From the NCBI RefSeq assembly GCF_050015975.1, contig NZ_JBNHER010000060.1:1-36749 (forward strand): a stretch of DNA of 36,749 nucleotides, in the 5' to 3' direction. The notes under the pieces are model-generated. The model searched no databases and was not told the DNA's origin. It saw nothing but the letters and a program-made list of their open reading frames with translations. The number at the start of each line of letters is the position of its first letter. The first letter of the stretch is position 1. Positions 12,368-31,536 of the stretch are shown here, one piece after another. This stretch comes from Dapis sp. BLCC M126. GTDB lineage: Bacteria; Cyanobacteriota; Cyanobacteriia; Cyanobacteriales; Microcoleaceae. Both the position numbers and the translations under genes were made by a program.

Positions 12368-13894
12368 ATGAAATTAGCCTACTGGATGTATGCAGGTCCC
12401 GCTCACATTGGTACATTGCGCGTTGCTAGTTCCTTTAAAAATGTTCATGCTATTATGCACGCTCCCCTTGGTGACGACTATTTCAACGTCATGCGCTCTA
12501 TGTTAGAAAGAGAACGTAATTATACGCCCGTGACTGCTAGTGTGGTTGATCGTAATGTATTGGCGCGTGGTTCCCAAGAAAAAGTAGTAGATAACATCGT
12601 CCGCAAAGACAAGGAAGAAACTCCAGATTTAATTGTTCTTACTCCTACCTGCACTTCCAGTATTTTGCAAGAAGACTTGGAGAATTTTGTCGAACGCGCT
12701 CAAATAGATGCGAAAGGTGACGTAATGTTGGCAGATGTTAATCATTATCGCGTCAACGAACTACAAGCAGCAGATCGTACTTTGGAACAAATTGTTAAAT
12801 ATTATATTGAGAAGGCGAAAAAGAAAGGGGAACTTCCAGAAGGAAAAACTGAAAAACCTTCTGTTAATATCATTGGTGTTTCTACCTTGGGTTTCCACAA
12901 CCAACATGACTGTACCGAGTTAAAACGCTTAATGACAGATTTAGGTATTGAAGTTAACGAAGTTATTCCCGAAGGTGCGTCGGTTCACAATTTAAAAAAT
13001 CTGCCTCGCGCTTGGTTTAACCTCACACCTTATAGAGAACTAGGCGTAATGGCAGCCAAATATTTAGAATCTGAGTTTGGCACGCCTTATATTGACATTA
13101 CTCCTATGGGTGTGGTGGAAACTGCTCGTTGTATTCGTAAAATTCAGCAGGTGGTTAATGCTCAAGGAGCAAATGTTGACTATGAGGAATATATTGATAA
13201 TCAAACTTTGCACGTTTCTCAAGCAGCTTGGTTTTCTCGCTCCATTGACTGTCAAAATTTAACAGGGAAAAAAGCGGTAGTGTTTGGCGATAATACCCAT
13301 GCTGCTGCTCTGACAAAAATTTTGGCGCGGGAGATGGGTATTCATGTAGTTTGGGCGGGTACTTATTGTAAGTATGATGCTGACTGGTTTCGGCAAGAGG
13401 TGAGTGAATATTGTGATGAGGTTTTAATTAGTGAGGATAATGGAGAGATTGGAGATGCGATTGCTCGTGTGGAACCTTCGGCAATTTTTGGCACGCAAAT
13501 GGAGCGTCACGTTGGTAAGCGTTTAGATATTCCTTGTGGTGTTATTGCTGCACCTATTCATATTCAGAATTTCCCTATTGGTTATAAACCGTTTATGGGT
13601 TATGAAGGAACTAATCAAATTGCCGATCTGGTTTACAATTCCTTTACTTTGGGAATGGAAGATCATCTGTTAGAAATATTTGGCGGGCACGATACTAAGG
13701 AAGTTATTACTAAGGGAATTTCTGCTGATTCTGATTTGAATTGGACGAAGGAAGCAAAGGCAGAATTGAATAAAGTGCCTGGTTTTGTCCGGGGTAAGGT
13801 GAAGCGAAATACAGAAAAGTTTGCAAGAGAACGTGGTATTGGGGAGATTTCTTTGGAAGTTATGTATGCTGCAAAAGAAGCGGTTGGTGCTTAG
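12368..13894 (+). CDS. chlB: Light-independent protochlorophyllide reductase (DPOR) subunit B
   Basis: 508-aa ORF with the diagnostic N-terminus [39 protein letters not shown]. Length and a C-terminal extension are typical of ChlB. An RBS-like GGAGAAG lies upstream. Confidence 0.95.
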
Positions 13895-15165: not shown

Positions 15166-15434
15166 TAATAATTTTCCTCCACAATTTCAATTTCATTTTT
15201 ACGACAACCGATAATCATTCCTTTTTTGATGAAATGCACGGAATAAATATAAAATTTTTGCAAGAAGGTACCGATGCCGCAAATATAACCGACTTCTCCT
15301 CCCTCCAAAAGAACATCACCTCGATTTTTTCCAGGAAAAGTACCATCATTACGAATGATTTTACAAACCCTGACTTTTTGTTCGAGTTCAAATGCAGGGG
15401 GTCCGTCTAATTCTATAAGTTCATCTACTTTCAT
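15165..15434 (-). CDS. nifZ: Nitrogen fixation protein NifZ
   Basis: 89-aa ORF with the NifZ-like core FELEQKVRVCKIIRNDGTFPGKNRGDVLLEGGEVGYI. It lies immediately upstream of nifT. Confidence 0.9.
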   Translation of the reverse strand: MKVDELIELDGPPAFELEQKVRVCKIIRNDGTFPGKNRGDVLLEGGEVGYICGIGTFLQKFYIYSVHFIKKGMIIGCRKNEIEIVEENY

Positions 15435-15512
15435 TTAGTTGCCTCGCTAATATTCGATAAGTTTAGTATTTTTTCTACAATTAAACTGTGTTTAATTTGG
15501 ACAGATATAGCT

Positions 15513-15573
15513 GAAGTCAGAAGTCAGAAGTCAGAAGTTAAAAGTTAAATTCTTGCTGTGACTAAACTTGAGA
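15513..15573 (+). repeat. STRR heptamer array (GAAGTCA x3, GAAGTTA, AAAGTTA) plus conserved flank
   Basis: Direct reading. The flank AAATTCTTGCTGTGACTAAACTTGAGA is shared with the 13897 and 10450 units. Confidence 0.8.
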
Positions 15574-16056
15574 GGCGCTAGAATGTCTTGACCGCCCTGG
15601 CGACTGCTATATTATCTGTAATCACTTGCAAAATAGTCGTGATTTTTTTGACTTCTAAAAGTCATACTTTACTTCTTAATTATTGCATATTTATATTGTT
15701 GAAAAAAGTAGCGATTATAGCTGACTCAATAAGTCCAGTTTATTTGTCAATCAATCAAATATTTATGGTTTGTTGATCATAAAACTCGATTTCTGAGGGT
15801 TGTTAGAACTACACTTAATCAACAGGATAAATGTCAAAGAAAGAGAAATTATTAATTATTTTAACTATATTTATAATTTTGTAGATGCGTTCCCTCGCAA
15901 ATCAATAGATACAGATCCAGGAACATCATAAACAAGGGACAAATATTTTGATTTCTTGATTAAACTACTTAAACTTAAATTTTAGTATTTGCCTCAATTA
16001 AACACTACTTTGCTAATCAGGTAACTTTTATTTAGATAAATTTTATAATTCATCTT

Positions 16057-16311
16057 TTAACTAATTAATTTATCGTAGCAGAAAGTATTGTTATTATAAG
16101 ACTCCAACCAATCAAAAATTTGCTGTAGTTGGTGCAGGGAAATCATACCAAACTTCCAGAGAATCATTGGTAGCGGACCACAAGAAGCTTCACTGTGTTT
16201 CCGTGCGACAGAAATTGCTGCTGCGGAAAGAGATAATTCTTCCTGCAAAAAATGAATAAATAGAGTGGTTTTGCGATCGCCTTCCATAGTTATTATCCTT
16301 AAAAAATTCAA
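16057..16311 (-). CDS. DUF2949 family small protein (nif-cluster associated)
   Basis: 84-aa ORF with the typical pattern FLQEELSLSAAAISVARKHSE...GPLPMILWKFGMISLHQLQQIFDWLE. Confidence 0.8.
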   Translation of the reverse strand: MNFLRIITMEGDRKTTLFIHFLQEELSLSAAAISVARKHSEASCGPLPMILWKFGMISLHQLQQIFDWLESYNNNTFCYDKLIS

Positions 16312-16371: not shown

Positions 16372-16647
16372 TTAATGGTTGTATTTAGGAACTTCCATTT
16401 TCCAGCATCTTTCTAACCAGTCTACTAACTCTGTCCGAGGAGCAATAAATTGCTTAACAGTGCTTTGGAGTAGAATAGCATCAGTACAACTCTTTACTTC
16501 TACTAATAATTCACCATTGTCAGTACACCAACTATTAATCATTAGCTCTTTTAAGCGATGGTGAACAAACCAACGATCTATTTGAGAAAGATTCACAATT
16601 TTAGTCAAATCTTCGGGATGAGGGTGAGAATTATGATTACTACACAT
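16372..16647 (-). CDS. Asr1405/Asl0597 family small protein (nif-cluster associated)
   Basis: 91-aa ORF with the pattern [28 protein letters not shown]...[25 protein letters not shown]. It overlaps the end of cysE by 8 bp. Confidence 0.8.
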
Positions 16648-17491
16648 TGTTGCTTTTCCTTGTATCGCCCATAAGAGTTTGCAATTGTTTTTCTAGTTGC
16701 TCAATTCTGTCAACTAAAGCACGAGTTACGGCAGCTTCAGTATCTGGTAATTTTCCATGTTCTAGAACTCCAGTCCGTTCACCAGATTTCGATACGACTC
16801 TACCTGGTATACCAACAACGGTGCAGTCAGAAGGGACATGACGCAATACAATGGAACCAGCACCGATGCGAACATTATCACCAATATTGAGATTCCCTAG
16901 TACCTTTGCACCAGCACCAACTACAACGTTTTTGCCAATAGTGGGATGGCGTTTACCAATTTCTTTTCCTGTTCCACCAAGAGTGACACCCTGATAAATT
17001 AATGAATAGTCTCCAATAATTGCTGTTTCACCAATAACTACTCCCATACCATGATCGATAAATACTCCCTGTCCAATTTTTGCCCCTGGGTGAATTTCTA
17101 TTCCTGTGAAAAACCGCCCCAAATGGGAAATTAAACGTGGAATTAAAGGTACTCTCTGACGGTACAATTTATGAGCAAGACGGTGTAGTAATAAAGCATG
17201 CAAACCAGGGTAGCAACATAACACTTCAAGCCAGTTGCGTGCTGCTGGATCTCGCTCGAAAATTACTTGAAAATCTGTTAATATTGTATTTAGTTCAGGA
17301 AAGGTAAAATATTTGTACCAAAACCTATGACGACGAGATGAAGAAAGCTCTCTATTGGATTCTAATAGTAGATTTTTTTGGAGAACTTCACTATCAGCCT
17401 TTGGTTTGACTTGAGACCTCAAGTTACCTTGGCCTTTTGTCAAAGTAGAATTGTTAGTTGTGTTAGGTAAGGTGCAGGTATTGGCAGTCAT
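16640..17491 (-). CDS. cysE: Serine O-acetyltransferase (nif-associated CysE)
   Basis: 283-aa ORF with SAT N-terminal helical motifs ([27 protein letters not shown]) and hexapeptide repeats ([32 protein letters not shown]...). It has a ~60-aa N-terminal extension. Confidence 0.9.
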
Positions 17492-17699
17492 TTCAGTTAT
17501 CAGTTATTAGTTAGCTTCCTGTGGAGGAACTGCTTTAACAGTACCTTTAGTAATAGTAATAGGGAGGTTTAAGACCTTATTTCTTGGTCATGGGTCAAAA
17601 TAAAGGCTTCTGTCTTTGATAAAGACGTTTGCTTTTCAATGTTTATACCAAGTGCCTTGTAAACTACTGATAAATATTTCCTGCTCAGTCTTTATTAAA

Positions 17700-17945
17700 T
17701 TTATTAGGTTTGTACTCAAAATATTTAACCCATGAGTAGAAGAGTATTATAGATATGTTTAAAATATATTTTGGGCTATAGGTACTAGTATTTTTTGTAG
17801 TGTGTACGAGTATTTACTGAATAATGTACTAGCATTTTTGTACTCAAGGCAAATGCTTGTATTACTGCAAGTTTGAGGATCTTAAGTGGGGTTTTCTCTA
17901 AAATTTAAACTTGTACTCAATATTAGTTTAACTCATAACCATAGT
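17700..17945 (-). promoter_or_regulatory. cysE-proximal arm of an inverted duplicated upstream module
   Basis: TGTACTCA occurs at 17711, 17839 and 17912. A GTA-N8-TAC 14-mer, GTACGAGTATTTAC, lies at 17804-17817. The arm aligns with the reverse complement of 18755-19000. Confidence 0.55.
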
Positions 17946-18434
17946 CGAAATATTAAAAAAAACGTTAAAAATTATCTACTTAATTCTGAAAAAACTGCTA
18001 AGTTAATTACAGAAGCTAAAAATTGGCACTTAAATTTTTCGTAGTATACTGTTTCATCCTAAATCTAAATTTTGCAATAGATGTAGGTTTGGTTGGGGAG
18101 TGTTTTTGGCTAAGAGCCGACATGAAACGCTGCGCGACATGGAAAGTGCAGCTTATCCGTAGGATAAGGATAAACCTAACCACTATCTGTCCCTCCTACT
18201 CCCCTACTCCCTAATGCACTATTTTAGTTGAAACCGTTCGGTAGGTAGATTAGGGGTTGGAATGTAGAGTTTTTCGCTTAGATGATCAAACAGGATTAAA
18301 TGCCGTCACCCCGCCTTGATTAGCGAAATGTTTTTGTCGGGCGGCTTACCCATCCCCGTAACAAAAAAACTTCTGGCTTTTGACTTCGTTCGTCCTGGGA
18401 TATAAGGGTTAAATTAGTAACTTATTAGAAATAT

Positions 18435-18545
18435 TTATCAAATACTAAAGAAAAGTCAAGAAAAATCCACCCTAGTTGCCAAAAACTGATACATTATATA
18501 CAGTAATAAAAGATTAACCTAAATAAAGAACAATATGAGTACAGT
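18435..18545 (+). repeat. ~110-bp direct repeat, copy A (nifB upstream region)
   Basis: TTATCAAATACTAAAGAAAAGTCAAGAAAAATCCACCCTAGTTGCCAAAAACTGATACATTATATACAGTAATAAAAGATTAAC...ATATGAGTACAG matches copy B at roughly 85-90 percent identity by eye. Confidence 0.8.
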
Positions 18546-18682
18546 AGATAAGAGAAAAGGGAGGCAGATAATTGGAAGATAGGAGTTCTGCAAATAAGTT
18601 ATTAATTGAGATTATTCTCAAATATAGTTTGTTCTAATTTTCTGAAATAATAAGATTCAATCTACTTTCTTATCAAGAATAA

Positions 18683-18791
18683 TTATCAAATGCTAAAGAA
18701 AAATTAAGAAAAATCTACCCTACTTGCCAAAAACTGATACATTGTATACAGTAATAAAAGATTGACTTAAATAGGGGGTATATGAGTACAG
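18683..18791 (+). repeat. ~110-bp direct repeat, copy B (overlaps the distal part of the nifB-proximal arm)
   Basis: TTATCAAATGCTAAAGAAAAATTAAGAAAAATCTACCCTACTTGCCAAAAACTGATACATTGTATACAGTAATAAAAGATTGAC...TATATGAGTACAG. Confidence 0.8.
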
Positions 18792-19000
18792 GAGCCTAGA
18801 GAAAAAAATATGGTCAAAAAAATAGCGAAATAACCAATATATATAGCTTCCAGCATGAGTACATAGGAGCCTGCACCATCACACCGTAAATACTCGTACC
18901 CAACTTAAAAAATACAAGTACCTGTACCCCAATAAAAAATTTTATATATCCCAATCTAATTTGAATTATTAAATTAGAAAAATCTGAGTACAAAATTAAT
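18755..19000 (+). promoter_or_regulatory. nifB-proximal arm of an inverted duplicated upstream module
   Basis: TGAGTACA occurs at 18783, 18856 and 18985. GTAAATACTCGTAC at 18886-18899 is the exact complement of the 14-mer at 17804-17817. Confidence 0.55.
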
Positions 19001-19190
19001 CATAATAATAAATACTAATCGCGGTTTTTGAATGTAGCACTCTAAAACCCACTGATATAAAAACTATAACGCCGGACACCAAATCCACTGACATAACACC
19101 GCCAATGTTCAAGTCACTGAGAAAAAGTGTATCGACGCGAGTAATCCGTCACCCACGGCGACAGCTAGTACAATACAAGTGGAAACTTAG

Positions 19191-20660
19191 ATGTTACAGC
19201 CAACAGAACTATCTGCCCAACCAACAGTGAACAGCTTCGCAAACACCACGGCGAGCCCAGAAAAAAAATCCGGCGGCTGCGCGTCAAAGGGTTGCGGAAG
19301 CACCGAACAGGAACTGGCCCCCAATATCCAAGAGCGGGTTGCTAACCATCCTTGCTATAGTCAAGAAGCGCATCACCACTATGCTAGGATGCACGCTCCA
19401 GTTGCACCAGCTTGCAACATTCAATGTAACTATTGTAACCGGAAATACGACTGCGCTAATGAAAGTCGTCCAGGGGTAGTTAGTGAACTACTAACTCCTG
19501 AAGAAGCAGCTCACAAAGCTCTAGTAATTGCAGGGAAAATTCCACAAATGACTGTTATGGGTATTGCCGGACCTGGCGACCCATTGGCCAACCCAGAGAA
19601 AACATTCCGCACTTTTGAGCTTGTAGCTGAGAAAGCTCCAGATATCAAGCTTTGCTTGTCAACCAATGGTCTAGCTTTACCTGAGTATGTAGATCGGATT
19701 AAAGCATTAAATATTGACCACGTTACTTTAACAATTAATATGGTTGACCCTGAAATTGGGGTTAAGATTTATCCTTGGGTTCATTACAAGCGGAAGCGCT
19801 ATAGAGGAATTGAAGGAGTCAAAATTCTCCATCAAAGGCAAATGGAATCTTTGGACTTGCTCCAAAAAGCTGATATTCTCTGCAAAGTTAACTCAGTGAT
19901 GATTCCTGGCATTAATGATCAGCACTTAGAAGAAGTTAATAGAGTAGTTCGTTCTAAGGGTGCATTTATCCATAACATTATGCCCCTAATTTCTTCACCA
20001 GAACACGGCACTTACTTCGGTTTAAATGGTCAGCGCGGTCCAACTACTGAAGAATTAAAAACATTGCAAGACAAATGTGATGTTGGTGGTATGAAAATGA
20101 TGCGCCACTGTCGTCAATGCCGTGCAGATGCAGTTGGTCTCTTAGGTGAAGATCGGAGTAAGGAATTCACAAAAGAAGCAATCATGGAGATGACTCCAGA
20201 ATACGATCTGGAAAAGCGTAAAGAAGTCCATGCTGGCATTGAAGGTTTCCGCAATAAACTAGCAACAGCCAAGGCCGAGACTCAGGTAGAAGAAGCAGTT
20301 GCTCAAGCTGGTCCTCCTATATTGCTAGCAGTAGCAAGTAAGGGTAACGGATTAGTTAATCAACACTTTGGTCATGCTAAAGAGTTCATGATCTATGAAG
20401 TAGATGGTGTTAACGCCAGGTTTATTGCTCACCGGAAAGTTGACCACTATTGTTTAGGTGGTTATAGTGAAGAAGGAAGTTTGGAGAATATAATCAAGGC
20501 AATTTCTGATTGCAAAGCTGTTCTAGTTTCTAAAATTGGTGATGGTCCAAAAGGAAAGTTACTGGACGCAGGAGTAGACGTAGTAGAGAGCTATGATGTA
20601 ATTGAAACAGTTGCTTTAGATTTCTACAAGGAATTCATCAAACTAATACAACCTGCATAG
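19191..20660 (+). CDS. nifB: FeMo-cofactor biosynthesis radical SAM protein NifB (with C-terminal NifX-like domain)
   Basis: 489-aa ORF. The radical-SAM motif context is [17 protein letters not shown]. Conserved blocks [16 protein letters not shown] and [11 protein letters not shown] are present. The C-terminal domain reads [27 protein letters not shown]. Confidence 0.95.
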
Positions 20661-20663
20661 GTA

Positions 20664-20922
20664 ATGAATTGTACCATAATTAGCAAATGTGTTTCCTGCT
20701 ATCATTATGTTTCCCAATGCCTCACTGGTGCTATTAGCTGGAAAGAAGTAGGCTATGCAATTAAGTAAATCTTATGCCTGTTAAGCAATAGCATCAGCAG
20801 CAGCCAATTATTGGGATGCCTAGTTTGTTACTTATAACAAGTTGGTTTCTCAAATAAATGAAGCCAAGCAAGGAAATTACTGGCTAAAGTGGTTTGAACT
20901 CTACTCAAAAAGATTGTCGTAG
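20664..20922 (+). pseudogene. fdxN: Decayed fdxN (bacterial-type 2[4Fe-4S] ferredoxin) remnant
   Basis: 20664-20768 encodes MNCTIISKCVSCYHYVSQCLTGAISWKEVGYAIK then a stop. The CxxCxxCxxxCP motif is broken (third Cys is Tyr, Pro is Leu). A different frame (20791-20922) reads ASAAANYWDA(stop)FVTYNKLVSQINEAKQGNYWLKWFELYSKRLS(stop), resembling the FdxN C-terminal DYWxxWF repeats. The second Cys cluster is missing. Confidence 0.7.
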
Positions 20923-21069
20923 TAACTTCCAGCTTCAATCTGTAATACATAGCTAGTACAGCTAGCTGGAAGTTAAAAACCAACAGTCAAAAGTCACAAG
21001 CTTTCAACATCAGGCTTCTGACTGTTCTTCTTCTTCTCTACAACCATCACCTCAATTTTTTAGTCAGCT

Positions 21070-22272
21070 ATGCAACAAACCATTTATCTAGACAACAATG
21101 CTACCACCAAAGTAGATGAGGCAGTGCTGGCGGAAATGCTGCCTTACCTGAGTGAATTTTATGGTAATCCCTCTAGTATGCACACTTTCGGCGGACAAGT
21201 TGGTAAGGCTGTGAGGAAGGCGCGATCGCAAGTAGCAGCTTTACTAAACGCTGAAGATACAGAAATTATTTTTACCAGTTCTGGTACTGAGGGTGATAAT
21301 GCTGCTATTCGAGCTGCTCTTACCGCTCAACCTAATAAACGGCATATTATTACTACTCAAGTAGAACACCCGGCAGTTTTAAATCTGTGTAAACATCTGG
21401 AGAAGCAGGGGTATACAGTTACTTATCTGTCAGTAGATGGTCAGGGAATGATAGATTTAACTGAACTGGAAGCTGCTATTACAGGTAATACTGCCCTAGT
21501 TTCAGTTATGTACGCCAATAATGAAACAGGCGTGATTTTCCCCATAGAGCAAATTGGGCAAATAGCTAAGGAATATGGTGCGCTGTTCCACGTTGATGCA
21601 GTGCAAGCGGTAGGAAAAGTGCCTTTAGATATGAAGAATAGCACTATAGATATGCTAGCTCTATCTGGTCATAAGTTGCACGCTCCTAAAGGTATTGCTG
21701 CTTTGTATGTGCGCCGTGGTACTCGGTTCCGTCCGTTATTAATTGGAGGACATCAGGAACGGGGACGCCGTGCAGGGACGGAAAATGTACCTGGTCTGAT
21801 TGCTCTGGGTAAAGCTTGTGAATTGGCACAAGAGCATTTGGCGCATATTGACAAGGAAAGGGAACTGCGCGATTATTTGGAAAACGGTATTTTGGCTGCT
21901 ATTCCTGATTGTGCTGTTAATGGTCATCCTATTCAGAGGTTGCCTAATACTACTAATATTGGCTTCAAGTATATTGAGGGAGAAGCAATATTACTGCATT
22001 TGAACCATTATGGTATCTGTGCTTCTTCTGGTTCTGCTTGTACTTCTGGGTCTCTGGAACCTTCTCACGTTTTGCGGGCAATGGGATTGCCCTACACAGT
22101 TTTACATGGCTCGATTCGTTTTTCTCTATCACGTTATACAACTCGTCGAGAAATTGAGGAAGTGTTGGCAGTGATGCCGACCGTAGCAGAACGTTTGCGT
22201 GCTTTATCTCCTTTTAAGAATGACCAAGCTGAGTGGCTGCAAGAGCGTCAGCAGGCAACTGTGTCATCCTAA
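21070..22272 (+). CDS. nifS: Cysteine desulfurase NifS
   Basis: 400-aa ORF starting IYLDNNATTKVD. The PLP-lysine context is LSGHKLHAPKGIAAL and the active-site Cys loop is SSGSACTSGS. Confidence 0.95.
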   Translation: MQQTIYLDNNATTKVDEAVLAEMLPYLSEFYGNPSSMHTFGGQVGKAVRKARSQVAALLNAEDTEIIFTSSGTEGDNAAIRAALTAQPNKRHIITTQVEHPAVLNLCKHLEKQGYTVTYLSVDGQGMIDLTELEAAITGNTALVSVMYANNETGVIFPIEQIGQIAKEYGALFHVDAVQAVGKVPLDMKNSTIDMLALSGHKLHAPKGIAALYVRRGTRFRPLLIGGHQERGRRAGTENVPGLIALGKACELAQEHLAHIDKERELRDYLENGILAAIPDCAVNGHPIQRLPNTTNIGFKYIEGEAILLHLNHYGICASSGSACTSGSLEPSHVLRAMGLPYTVLHGSIRFSLSRYTTRREIEEVLAVMPTVAERLRALSPFKNDQAEWLQERQQATVSS

Positions 22273-28415: not shown

Positions 28416-28506
28416 CAAGGTTACTCGCTCCTAACCCACCATTTTAGTCTTGACACGCCAGTAGTGGATTGTTTCACCTAAAATAGTGCATTAGCTTTTT
28501 TCATAA

Positions 28507-28728: not shown

Positions 28729-31536
28729 ATGGCTATGATGACCCCAGGCAAAGTTGCCGAACTATTGAATGAGCCTGGTTGCGAACACAACCATAAGAAA
28801 AATAACGGAGAAAAAAAACAGAAAGGCTGTAACCAACAAGCGTCACCTGGAGCAGCTCAAGGAGGTTGCGCTTTCGACGGAGCTAGTATCGCCCTAGTAC
28901 CCATCACAGATGCAGCTCACCTGGTTCACGGGCCTTTAGGTTGTTCTGGTAACTCCTGGGGAACTCGTGGTAGTCTTTCCTCTAACTCCCATCTCTACAA
29001 AATGGGTTTTACCACCGACATGGGTGAAAATGACATTATCATGGGCGGTGAGAAAAAATTATTGAAGGCGATCGCTGAACTGAAAAAACGCTACCAACCT
29101 CCAGCAGTATTTGTCTACGCTACCTGTGTTACTTCCTTAATTGGAGATGATCTAGAAACAGTTTGTAAAGTCGCCAGCAAAAAATTAGAACTTCCGGTAA
29201 TTCCTGTAAACTCTCCTGGTTTCATCGGTAGTAAAAATCTCGGCAACCGGGTTAGTGCAGAAGCATTATTAGACCATGTAGTAGGTACAGCAGAACCAGA
29301 ATTTACTACACCTTACGATATTAATCTCATCGGTGAATACAATATCGCTGGGGAAATGTGGGCTATGTTACCCCTGTTTGAAAAACTCGGCATTCGGGTA
29401 TTGTCAAAAATTACAGGAGATGCTACCTACGAAGAAGTTTGTTATGCTCACCGTGCCAAACTCAACGTTATGATCTGCTCTAAAGCTATGATCAACATGG
29501 CACGGAAAATGGAGGAAGAATACGGTATTCCTTACATTGAAGAATCATTTTATGGTGTTGCTGATATTAACAACTGTCTCAGAAATATAGCAGCTCAACT
29601 TGGTTATGATGACTTGAAAGAGCGGACAGAAAAGCTTATTGCGGAAGAAACAACTATTCTCCAAGAAATATTAGAACCCTATCGCCAACGTCTCAAAGGT
29701 AAAAGAGTTGTACTCTACACAGGCGGGGTAAAAAGTTGGTCTATTATTTCCGCAGCTAAAGATTTAGGTATGGATGTGGTTGCTACTAGCACCAAGAAAA
29801 GTACGGAAGAAGATAAAGCTAAAATCAAACAATTACTTGGTAAAGATGGTATTTTGTTAGAAAAAGGTAATGCTGAAATTCTGCTGAAAGTAATTGCCGA
29901 CACTAAAGCTGATATGCTCATTGCAGGAGGCCGTAACCAATATACCGCCCTCAAAGCCAGAATTCCATTTTTGCACATTAACCAAGAACGCCACCATCCC
30001 TACGCTGGATATCATGGGATGATTGAAATGGCAAAAGAATTAGATGAAGCTCTCCATAGTCCAGTTTGGGAACAAGTACGACAACCCGCACCTTGGTTAG
30101 AGGAATGTCAGTTAGAGGATGTCTCAGCAATTGAAACTTTACCAAGTCTGACTAATATTCCACCCGCAACAGTTAACGTTCATAAAAACCCCTTATCCAC
30201 AAATCCTCTGAAACTCAGTCAACCCTTGGGTGCAGCTTTAGCATACTTAGGAATTAAGGGGATGATGCCAATGTTCCACGGTACTCAAGGTTGTACTGCT
30301 TTTGCTAAGGTATTATTGGTAAATCACTTCCAAGAAGCTATTCCCCTGTCTACGACTGCCATGAGTGAAGTGACAACTATTTTGGGAGGGGAAGATAACG
30401 TCGATAAAGCATTGCTGACTCAAGTTGAAAAGTCAAAACCAGAAGTTATTGGTTTGTTGACTACTGGTTTAACAGAAACCAGGGGCGATGACATGGAACG
30501 TATTCTCAAGAAATTTAGAGAAGATAATCCAGAGTTAGATGAGTTGCCCATATTAAATGTTTCTACTCCAGATTATAAGGGTTCTGCTCAGGACGGTTTT
30601 GCTGCTACAGTAGAACGTATAGTAGCTTATGATTATGGCGAACCTATTCCCAGGGAAACTAAAAAACCTTTCATTACAATTTTAGCAGGTTCTAGTCTTG
30701 CTCCTGGAGACGTGCAGGAAGTCAAAGATATTGTGGAAGGTTTTGGCTTAATTCCCATAGTTGTACCAGATATATCTCAGTCTTTGGACGGACATTTAGT
30801 TGATGATATTTATAGTGCTACCAGTACTGGCGGTACTACAATAGAGGAGTTGCGTAATTTGAGTCAGTCAGCTTTCACCTTTGTTATTGGGGAAAGTCTA
30901 CGGAACGCTGCTCAGATACTGCAAGAAAAATTTGGTACTCAATATCAAGTGTTTCCTCGGTTGACAGGTTTAGGTGCTGTAGACAGTTTCATGTTAAAAT
31001 TGTCTCAGCTAGTTGTGTCTCGTACCGATCCTCATCTTGACAGAGGTTGTGAAGTGCCTCAGAAGTATCAACGCCAACGTCGTCAGTTACAGGATGCGAT
31101 GTTGGATACCCACTTCTATTTTGGTCATAAGCAAATATCTATTGCTCTGGAGCCAGATTTACTTTGGGCAACAAGTTGGTTTTTGCGAGAAATGGGAGCA
31201 GATATTAAAGCTGCCGTAACAACTACGCGATCGCCATTACTCGAAAAATTGCCCACAGAAAATGTGACTGTTGGAGACTTGGGAGACTTTGAGGAAGTAG
31301 CAGCAGGTTCAGATTTACTAATTACCAATTCTCATGGTAAGCTAATATCTGAGAAGTTAGGTATTGCTCTCTATCGGATGGGAATGCCAATTCACGATCG
31401 CCTCGGTAATGGTCAACGTTGTTATGTAGGTTATCGTGGTACAATGAATTTATTATTTGATATTGGTAATATTTTCTTAGAGCAAGAAGAATCAAAAATT
31501 CACAGTAATGATTATTCATTATTGTCGCTACGTTAG
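28729..31536 (+). CDS. nifEN: Fused NifE-NifN FeMo-cofactor biosynthesis scaffold (single 935-aa ORF)
   Basis: The NifE-like part (aa 1 to ~456) contains KVAELLNEPGCEHN, GGCAFDGA, HGPLGCSG and ends ...HSPVWEQVRQPAPW. A ~31-aa linker covers 30097-30189. The NifN-like part starts at about aa 488 with NPLKLSQPLGAALAYLGIKGMMPMFHGTQGCTAFAK. There is no stop codon or ATG at the junction. Confidence 0.85.
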   Translation: MAMMTPGKVAELLNEPGCEHNHKKNNGEKKQKGCNQQASPGAAQGGCAFDGASIALVPITDAAHLVHGPLGCSGNSWGTRGSLSSNSHLYKMGFTTDMGENDIIMGGEKKLLKAIAELKKRYQPPAVFVYATCVTSLIGDDLETVCKVASKKLELPVIPVNSPGFIGSKNLGNRVSAEALLDHVVGTAEPEFTTPYDINLIGEYNIAGEMWAMLPLFEKLGIRVLSKITGDATYEEVCYAHRAKLNVMICSKAMINMARKMEEEYGIPYIEESFYGVADINNCLRNIAAQLGYDDLKERTEKLIAEETTILQEILEPYRQRLKGKRVVLYTGGVKSWSIISAAKDLGMDVVATSTKKSTEEDKAKIKQLLGKDGILLEKGNAEILLKVIADTKADMLIAGGRNQYTALKARIPFLHINQERHHPYAGYHGMIEMAKELDEALHSPVWEQVRQPAPWLEECQLEDVSAIETLPSLTNIPPATVNVHKNPLSTNPLKLSQPLGAALAYLGIKGMMPMFHGTQGCTAFAKVLLVNHFQEAIPLSTTAMSEVTTILGGEDNVDKALLTQVEKSKPEVIGLLTTGLTETRGDDMERILKKFREDNPELDELPILNVSTPDYKGSAQDGFAATVERIVAYDYGEPIPRETKKPFITILAGSSLAPGDVQEVKDIVEGFGLIPIVVPDISQSLDGHLVDDIYSATSTGGTTIEELRNLSQSAFTFVIGESLRNAAQILQEKFGTQYQVFPRLTGLGAVDSFMLKLSQLVVSRTDPHLDRGCEVPQKYQRQRRQLQDAMLDTHFYFGHKQISIALEPDLLWATSWFLREMGADIKAAVTTTRSPLLEKLPTENVTVGDLGDFEEVAAGSDLLITNSHGKLISEKLGIALYRMGMPIHDRLGNGQRCYVGYRGTMNLLFDIGNIFLEQEESKIHSNDYSLLSLR

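Follow-up and report, generated by a model that had tools for sequence, protein, structure and literature searches.

The 1.7-kb spacer that separates nifP (cysE) from nifB in the cyanobacterium Dapis sp. BLCC M126 holds two copies of one regulatory module, one facing each gene. These are most probably two back-to-back promoters that respond to CnfR (PatB), with PnifP directed leftward and PnifB directed rightward, a reading to which we assign a probability of roughly 0.85. CnfR, a transcription factor, has an Fe-S cluster region at its N-terminus and binds DNA through a C-terminal domain. The spacer is part of a stretch of 36,749 nucleotides (contig NZ_JBNHER010000060.1, positions 1 to 36,749 of the forward strand), and this whole stretch is referred to here as the window. 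The octamers that recur in the spacer are motifs 1A, 1B and 1C of CnfR-dependent nifB and nifP promoters, and its 14-mer and GGTACTnGTATTTTTT are motifs 2A and 2B of the same promoters. The cassette is thus already known; it is new only in the sense that this lineage had not been examined for it, and it involves no new type of element and no new mechanism. The genes on both sides are those named in the initial annotation, a reading of this DNA made from the sequence alone: nifP/cysE, which encodes a serine O-acetyltransferase and is the first gene of the leftward operon (16640-17491, minus strand; TIGR01172 at 1.1e-74), and nifB (19191-20660, plus strand; TIGR01290 at 2.6e-195).

Exact copies of the octamer TGAGTACA are far more frequent in the window than would be expected by chance. 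Seven are present, compared with 1.15 ± 1.10 expected, and none of 100 shuffles gave seven. All of them are found within the spacer, between 17711 and 18992, and there are none elsewhere in the window. Three are on the minus strand and face nifP (17711, 17839 and 17912), and four are on the plus strand and face nifB (18536, 18783, 18856 and 18985). Variants with one mismatch occur 29 times in the window, against 30.6 expected. Because this count is at the level of chance, only the exact intergenic copies carry signal, and the one-mismatch octamers were rejected as further CnfR-type sites in the window.

The octamers and the sequences between them are arranged as mirror images. On the nifP side, consecutive copies are 128 and 73 bp apart, and on the nifB side, 73 and 129 bp; the proximal copy lies 220 bp from the start codon of nifP (17491) and 199 bp from that of nifB (19191). 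The octamer at 18536, the fourth on the plus strand, stands outside this mirror and belongs to a tandem duplication of ~248 bp that is described below. The 14-mer GTACGAGTATTTAC is found in the window only at 17804 on the plus strand and at 18886 on the minus strand, where none would be expected, and GGTACTAGTATTTTTT (17781-17796) is matched by AAAAAATACAAGTACC (18906-18921) when the latter is reverse-complemented. When 18773-19075 is globally aligned with the reverse complement of 17628-17930 (303 nt), the identity is 60% and the score is 38, compared with −39 ± 7.2 for dinucleotide shuffles (z = 10.6); the same-strand control scores −51, which is below the shuffle mean. The similarity between the arms clusters in the motifs. 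The initial annotation had reported the seven octamers, their mirrored spacings, with proximal copies about 200-220 bp from the start codons, and the 14-mer shared by both arms, and had proposed that the region be compared with its own reverse complement. The counts, distances and alignment given here agree with it on each of these points.

Read in the direction of the gene, each module consists of 1A, 73 bp, 1B, 2A, 2B, 1C, 68 bp, and an extended -10 element of the form TGnTATAAA, without a -35 element. On the nifP side, where all elements are on the minus strand, 1A is an exact octamer at 17912-17919, and 1B (17839-17846) abuts a third 2-like element, AAAAATGCTAGTAC, with which it spans 17826-17846 (repeat family D8; 22 bp from 2A). 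Motif 2A, AAATACTCGTACA, follows at 17803-17817 and includes the 14-mer at 17804-17817; 22 bp from it is 2B, AAATACTAGTACC, at 17781-17793 inside GGTACTAGTATTTTTT, which was placed by pattern search and alignment. The exact octamer of 1C is at 17711-17718, and the predicted extended -10 element of PnifP, TGGTATAAA, is at 17642-17650, 68 bp after 1C. On the nifB side, with all elements on the plus strand, the exact octamers 1A, 1B and 1C are at 18783-18790, 18856-18863 and 18985-18992. Between the latter two are 2A, AAATACTCGTACC, at 18886-18900, which was placed by the same two approaches and includes the complement of the 14-mer, and 2B, AAAAAATACAAGTACC, at 18906-18922, again 22 bp from 2A. 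The predicted extended -10 element of PnifB, TGATATAAA, is at 19053-19061, 68 bp after 1C. The 14-mer of the initial annotation is therefore motif 2A, and the element that it wrote as GGTACT(A/T)GTATTTTTT is motif 2B.

Both 2-type motifs are built on AAATACTnGnACC, which forms direct repeats with a period of 22 bp in each arm (18888 and 18910 on the plus strand; 17803 and 17781 on the minus strand). Modules contain two or three such elements, and the third copy in the window, next to 1B on the nifP side, is the weaker one. A search of the whole window with the 2A/2B pattern gave six matches, against 0.79 expected, of which four are in the arms. Extra matches to AAATACTnGnACC at 17307 and 29666 are inside coding regions and were taken as chance.

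The positions of these elements can be compared with those in other cyanobacteria by means of 80 nifB loci from reference genomes; 84 unique modules, from these 80 genomes plus the window, were aligned. Both arms of the window fit the architecture of the alignment to within 1 bp. Measured from the start sites predicted below, the element centers on the nifB and nifP sides are, respectively, at ~-79.5 and ~-79.5 for 1C, -152 and -152 for 2B, -174 and -174 for 2A, -208.5 and -207.5 for 1B, and -281.5 and -280.5 for 1A. Each arm has the octamer triplet, 2A and 2B, an adjacent nifB or nifP, and an extended -10 without a -35, which are features by which the sequence of a CnfR module is recognized.

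The -10 element is held at a nearly fixed distance from the octamers. Counted from the start of 1C, a TGnTATAA box follows at 66-70 bp in 79 of 80 matches, most often at 68 bp, and the extended -10 of either arm in the window is exactly 68 bp after 1C (TGATATAAA at 19053 and TGGTATAAA at 17650 on the minus strand). From these boxes, transcription is predicted to start at ~19068 for nifB, with a 5′ untranslated region (5′ UTR) of ~123 nt, and at ~17635 for nifP, with a 5′ UTR of ~144 nt. If the same distance rule is applied to Nostoc loci, start sites are predicted at -327 to -335. The start site of nifB1 in Anabaena variabilis has been mapped at -328 (PMC4284476), and because the predicted range brackets this position, the way in which start sites were inferred is validated. 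A generic scan for sigma-70 promoters and terminators was uninformative, with seven sites against 6.7 expected and no -35/-10 pair at the predicted boxes, and the assignment of the -10 elements rests instead on comparative conservation. The initial annotation had found no convincing -10 box. This holds for TAN3T, as none is read at the canonical distance, but not for the conserved TGnTATAAA box 68 bp after 1C. The same region contains a direct repeat, AAACCCACTGATATAA / AAATCCACTGACATAA, at 19045-19060 and 19081-19096 (36 bp apart), through which part of the PnifB -10 region recurs within the predicted 5′ UTR.

The module is widespread. The forward octamer triplet, with spacings of 70-74 and 115-129 bp, is present in about 60 of the 80 nifB loci, which represent several cyanobacterial orders. 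In the module set, 85 triplets were detected, and the spacing classes seen in the window dominate. The conserved columns of the 84-module alignment are 1A, 1B, 2A, 2B, 1C and the TGnTATAAA box, including that of PnifP in the window, and the consensus reads ATAAAyACTnGwACCC for 2A, AAAAATACTAGwACCCCTACCC for 2B and TTTGAGTACAAAnnTAA for 1C with its flank. No columns vary less across the 84 modules than those of the octamers, which are at least 90% invariant. A divergent nifP is found within 4 kb of nifB in 19 of the 80 loci, in Dapis, Trichodesmium, Lyngbya, Limnoraphis, Crocosphaera, Oscillatoria, Desertifilum, one Prochloraceae genome and several Nostocales. All 19 have the nifB-side module, and 13 of them also have a strict nifP-side module.

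The association with nif genes is equally evident outside the reference genomes, provided that the whole architecture is considered. A loose triplet pattern returned 120 loci from metagenome contigs. In 20 of these, 2A/2B and the -10 are at the right distance, and 17 of the 20 have nifB and/or nifP (cysE) beside the module. By contrast, none of the other 100 loci has 2A/2B, a -10 box or a nif gene, and many of them show multiple overlapping matches that resemble repeat arrays. As the loose pattern mostly finds unrelated loci in metagenomes, filters on architecture are needed for it to be of use. The architecture as a whole is conserved, and its association is exclusively with nifB and nifP. 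Since 17 of the 20 full modules stand beside nifB or cysE and the other 100 loci lack the remaining parts of the module, the arms do not behave as a generic dispersed repeat without a link to nif genes, which the initial annotation had named as the outcome that would undo its reading.

The same comparison bears on the origin of the two arms. The initial annotation proposed that both operons had been given the same cassette by an inverted duplication. The cassette is in fact the same on both operons, but a duplication by which this genome acquired it is not supported. When the window, Dapis and Trichodesmium are compared, orthologous arms (nifB-side with nifB-side, and nifP-side likewise) are 63-93% identical, whereas the paralogous arms of a single genome share no more than 47-53% identity in the same matrix. 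As orthologous arms are more alike than paralogous ones, the two-module layout must predate the Dapis and Trichodesmium species; it recurs in Nostocales and in other orders. The same identities led to the rejection of gene conversion, or of a concerted evolution of the two arms. Both modules may have arisen by an ancient inverted duplication. It could still be argued that the arms arose by recent inverted duplication, or as copies of a generic dispersed repeat, and play no specific part in regulation, given their reverse-complement similarity and the presence in the same spacer of a recent duplication in tandem and of a strain-specific insert with a small dispersed repeat. This explanation is hardly credible in view of the identities just given, the concentration of the similarity between arms in functional motifs, the lack of any other copy in the window, and the position of full modules next to nifB or nifP in both reference genomes and metagenomes.

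NtcA is the global nitrogen regulator, and in the class II promoters that it activates, a TAN3T -10 box is preceded at ~22 bp by GTA-N8-TAC, with the site near -41.5. The 14-mers of the window fit this core exactly, and NtcA had been listed among the candidate activators in the initial annotation. If the 14-mer of each arm were an NtcA box, NtcA would activate both operons directly. It would be in line with this that the window and both Dapis genomes have, on each of their two arms, the 5′ G to which the match is due, and that chromatin immunoprecipitation sequencing in Nostoc PCC 7120 reportedly shows NtcA binding upstream of the nifB start site, hundreds of nucleotides away (PMC4284476). Nevertheless, a direct role for NtcA here is very unlikely. 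GTA...TAC is found at this position in only seven of the 84 orthologous modules, namely both arms of the window and of both Dapis genomes and one arm of a Microcoleaceae genome; the usual triplets at the 2A site are ATA on the 5′ side (56 of 84) and AAC on the 3′ side (43 of 84). The center of the site is at ~-174 from the predicted starts and not at -41.5, no TAN3T could be read by eye ~22 bp downstream on either arm, and the unit that is conserved is the direct repeat of AAATACTnGnACC with its 22-bp spacing, not a palindrome. Furthermore, NtcA is needed for the expression of cnfR2 in A. variabilis and is not essential for the transcription of nifB2 (PMC8510180), and published work places NtcA upstream of cnfR and not directly at nifB (PMC8510180; PMC4284476). 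The likeness to NtcA promoters is thus confined to the core, while position, TAN3T and conservation among orthologues all differ, and the G found in parallel on the two arms of the Dapis clade is too slight a basis for an argument.

The other candidate of the initial annotation, a CnfR/PatB-type activator, was well chosen and agrees with the published elements of CnfR-dependent promoters in both the TGAGTACA triplet and 2A/2B. In A. variabilis, as described in bioRxiv 10.1101/2025.04.01.646610 and PMC4284476, TGAGTACA occurs three times (1A, 1B and 1C) upstream of nifB1, nifB2 and nifP, and the A/C-rich motifs 2A and 2B are located between 1B and 1C; CnfR-dependent conserved elements of these three promoters are also reported in PMC8510180. 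Transcription of nifB1 is halved without 1A or 1B, and its expression falls by ~75% when both are mutated (bioRxiv 10.1101/2025.04.01.646610; PMC8510180). The nifB promoters lack a -35 and have an extended -10 (PMC8510180). In Leptolyngbya boryana, a single spacer lies between the divergent nifB and nifP operons, and both of them require CnfR (PMC5943405). In addition, recombinant CnfR binds fragments of nifB, nifP and alr2522 from PCC 7120 in vitro (Rachedi 2023, as cited in bioRxiv 10.1101/2025.04.01.646610). CnfR binding and CnfR-dependent activation at low oxygen and low nitrogen are known from experiments on the orthologous regions of A. variabilis, Nostoc PCC 7120 and L. boryana. By orthology, the upstream array of each arm would be bound by CnfR when oxygen and combined nitrogen are low, and bound CnfR would then activate RNA polymerase at the extended -10. 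In this way, this organism would turn on the nifB-...-fdxH cluster and the nifP-...-nifT operon together.

Several observations weigh against CnfR-responsive promoters in this spacer. First, a search of the open reading frames (ORFs) of the 36.7-kb window with NCBIfam and Pfam found no cnfR gene. According to the literature, cnfR is frequently located in or near cyanobacterial nif clusters, and its presence in this genome is assumed from what is published on diazotrophic cyanobacteria. Because the window has no cnfR, and data on binding and start sites come from other lineages, the mechanism proposed here, CnfR binding and start sites included, rests on orthology. Second, the nifP start predicted at -144 differs from that of A. 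variabilis, which is at -33/-34 from the ATG (bioRxiv 10.1101/2025.04.01.646610), and so do the UTR lengths; the start predicted on the nifP side is less secure than that on the nifB side. Third, a change in 1B has little effect in L. boryana, and motif 1A lowers the expression of nifP in A. variabilis (bioRxiv 10.1101/2025.04.01.646610). As the roles of the motifs differ between promoters and species, TGAGTACA might be bound by a factor other than CnfR.

The last point can be extended to a two-factor enhancer, in which 2A/2B would be the CnfR sites and the TGAGTACA octamers would be sites for a second factor or architectural spacers. Apart from the unequal effects of 1A and 1B just mentioned, such an arrangement would suit the finding that changes in the equivalents of 2A or 2B abolish CnfR activation in L. 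boryana (bioRxiv 10.1101/2025.04.01.646610), as well as the conservation of the octamers, which is unusually strict for auxiliary sites. It is, however, an unlikely one. The losses of nifB1 expression on mutation of 1A, 1B or both speak against it, AGTAC is the common core of the octamer and of the 2-type elements (TGAGTACA and CTAGTACC), which is compatible with a single recognition domain, and the fragments bound by CnfR carry both types of motif. CnfR acting through the whole array is, for these reasons, the reading that is preferred here.

Beyond motif 1A, each arm has a distal block that is conserved in Dapis and Trichodesmium. That of the nifP module (17920-18040, no strand assigned) corresponds to near-invariant alignment columns 1-140. 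The original block of the nifB module is at 18650-18790 on the plus strand and ends in 1A; upstream of 1A it contains the conserved sequence TTGCCAAAAACTGATACATTGTATACAGTAATAAAAGATTGA, which is specific to the clade and is also found in Trichodesmium. An extra copy of this block, together with an octamer 1A′ (18536-18543), is at 18402-18558 on the plus strand and results from the ~248-bp tandem duplication. The stretches 18402-18558 and 18650-18805 are 84-85% identical and 247-248 bp apart (repeat families D1 and D2; blastn, 84% over 138 nt), and the extra octamer is ~530 bp upstream of the predicted nifB start. The duplication is shared only with Dapis sp. BLCC M172, which has three partial copies in a more complex arrangement, and is lacking in Dapis M229, in a metagenome relative with 94% identity and in Trichodesmium. 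It is rather improbable, but conceivable, that this duplication and the A-to-G change on both arms, by which 2A becomes a perfect GTA-N8-TAC, are functional innovations of the Dapis lineage. If so, a composite CnfR/NtcA site could result from the A-to-G change and convey nitrogen status directly to both nif promoters in this clade.

Within the distal block of the nifB side, 18470-18510 and 18718-18758 resemble a sigma-70 promoter facing nifB (TTGCCA, 17 bp, TACAGT) and contain the palindrome TGTATACA. This stretch, which could be a second upstream promoter or a site for another factor, is conserved in Trichodesmium and not in Nostocales, where a CTGGAGTAG...CTACTCCAG hairpin is found upstream of 1A instead.

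The two modules are separated by a strain-specific insert at 18040-18410 (no strand assigned), which is outside the regulatory cassette. Its GC content is 40-51%, compared with 20-30% around it, and neither Dapis M172 nor Dapis M229 nor Trichodesmium has it. The insert contains a run of heptamers (CCTACTC/CCCTACT, ~18194-18216) followed by the 24-mer CTAATGCACTATTTTAGTTGAAAC, which recurs at 28471-28494 on the minus strand, after a G-rich run of heptamers in the nifK-nifEN spacer, and probably represents a dispersed repeat of small size. The possibility that the spacer encodes an RNA was rejected, as there was no Rfam match in the whole window at gathering thresholds or in 17450-19250 at E <= 1, and the fold of the GC-rich central piece gave no signal (z = 0.10).

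The window as a whole is a nif cluster of the Trichodesmium type. NifB is 97% and 92% identical to the proteins of two Dapis strains and 89% identical to that of Trichodesmium erythraeum IMS101. Because its nearest relatives are thus in Dapis and Trichodesmium, the lineage is one of non-heterocystous Microcoleaceae, and the reference of the initial annotation to "other Nostocales" has to be corrected. The leftward operon consists of nifP, an Asr1405-family gene, a DUF2949 gene, nifZ and nifT. Between the DUF2949 gene and nifZ there is a stretch of ~620 bp (15434-16057) without any ORF of at least 50 amino acids; the corresponding place is occupied in A. variabilis by nifV (nifP then nifVZT), which is absent here. 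NifP/CysE (16640-17491) has an N-terminal extension of ~65 amino acids with respect to most cyanobacterial homologues, and tblastn matches outside the Dapis/Trichodesmium clade begin between residues 57 and 70. Regulated expression of nifP in A. variabilis reportedly requires the first 162 bp of the gene.

Further features of the cluster lie away from the spacer. There is no full-length fdxN between nifB and nifS (20660-21070), where the sole candidate is an ORF of 34 amino acids (20664-20768), MNCTIISKCVSCYHYVSQCLTGAISWKEVGYAIK, which resembles the N-terminus of a ferredoxin. Genes nifE and nifN are fused into one ORF of 935 amino acids (28729-31536; NF011047, bifunctional NifEN). The nif cluster is adjoined by chlB (12368-13894), which encodes subunit B of DPOR, an oxygen-sensitive, nitrogenase-like protochlorophyllide reductase.

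In effect, a reader with access to the sequence alone recovered a genuine cassette that has been validated experimentally in other cyanobacteria. CnfR-dependent nifB and nifP promoters are of practical interest for the transfer of cyanobacterial nitrogen fixation to organisms that are not diazotrophic. What is added here is modest: the whole module, up to and including the extended -10, keeps its geometry to within 1 bp from one arm to the other, and it is conserved from Nostocales to the Trichodesmium/Dapis clade. The predicted start sites are open to experimental test in marine non-heterocystous diazotrophs, where the regulation of nif genes is poorly characterized.

Among known systems, the cassette of A. 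variabilis is very similar in its elements, with three copies of TGAGTACA, 2A and 2B between 1B and 1C, and an extended -10 without a -35, upstream of both nifB and nifP. Its octamer spacings, 71-73 and 126-129 bp in cassettes of this type, are also those of the window. The two differ in that nifP is not adjacent to nifB in A. variabilis, whereas it is divergent from nifB in the window, and in that the window has a fourth octamer as a result of the tandem duplication. In addition, the distance from 1C to the nifB ATG is ~416 bp in Nostoc-type loci and 206 bp in the window, where the 5′ UTR is shorter, and 2A reads CTCGTACC in the window and CTAGAACC in the A. variabilis type. In terms of layout, L. 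boryana, as described in the papers on it (Tsujimoto et al. 2016; PMC5943405), provides a parallel: it is also non-heterocystous, and its nifB and nifP operons diverge from one spacer and are both activated by CnfR. By the same descriptions, its elements I-II correspond to 1B, IV-V to 2A and VI-VII to 2B. The leftward operons have a different content, which is nifP-...-nifENXW in L. boryana and nifP, the Asr1405-family gene, the DUF2949 gene, nifZ and nifT in the window; unlike the leftward nifENXW of L. boryana, the fused nifEN of the window is downstream of nifK.

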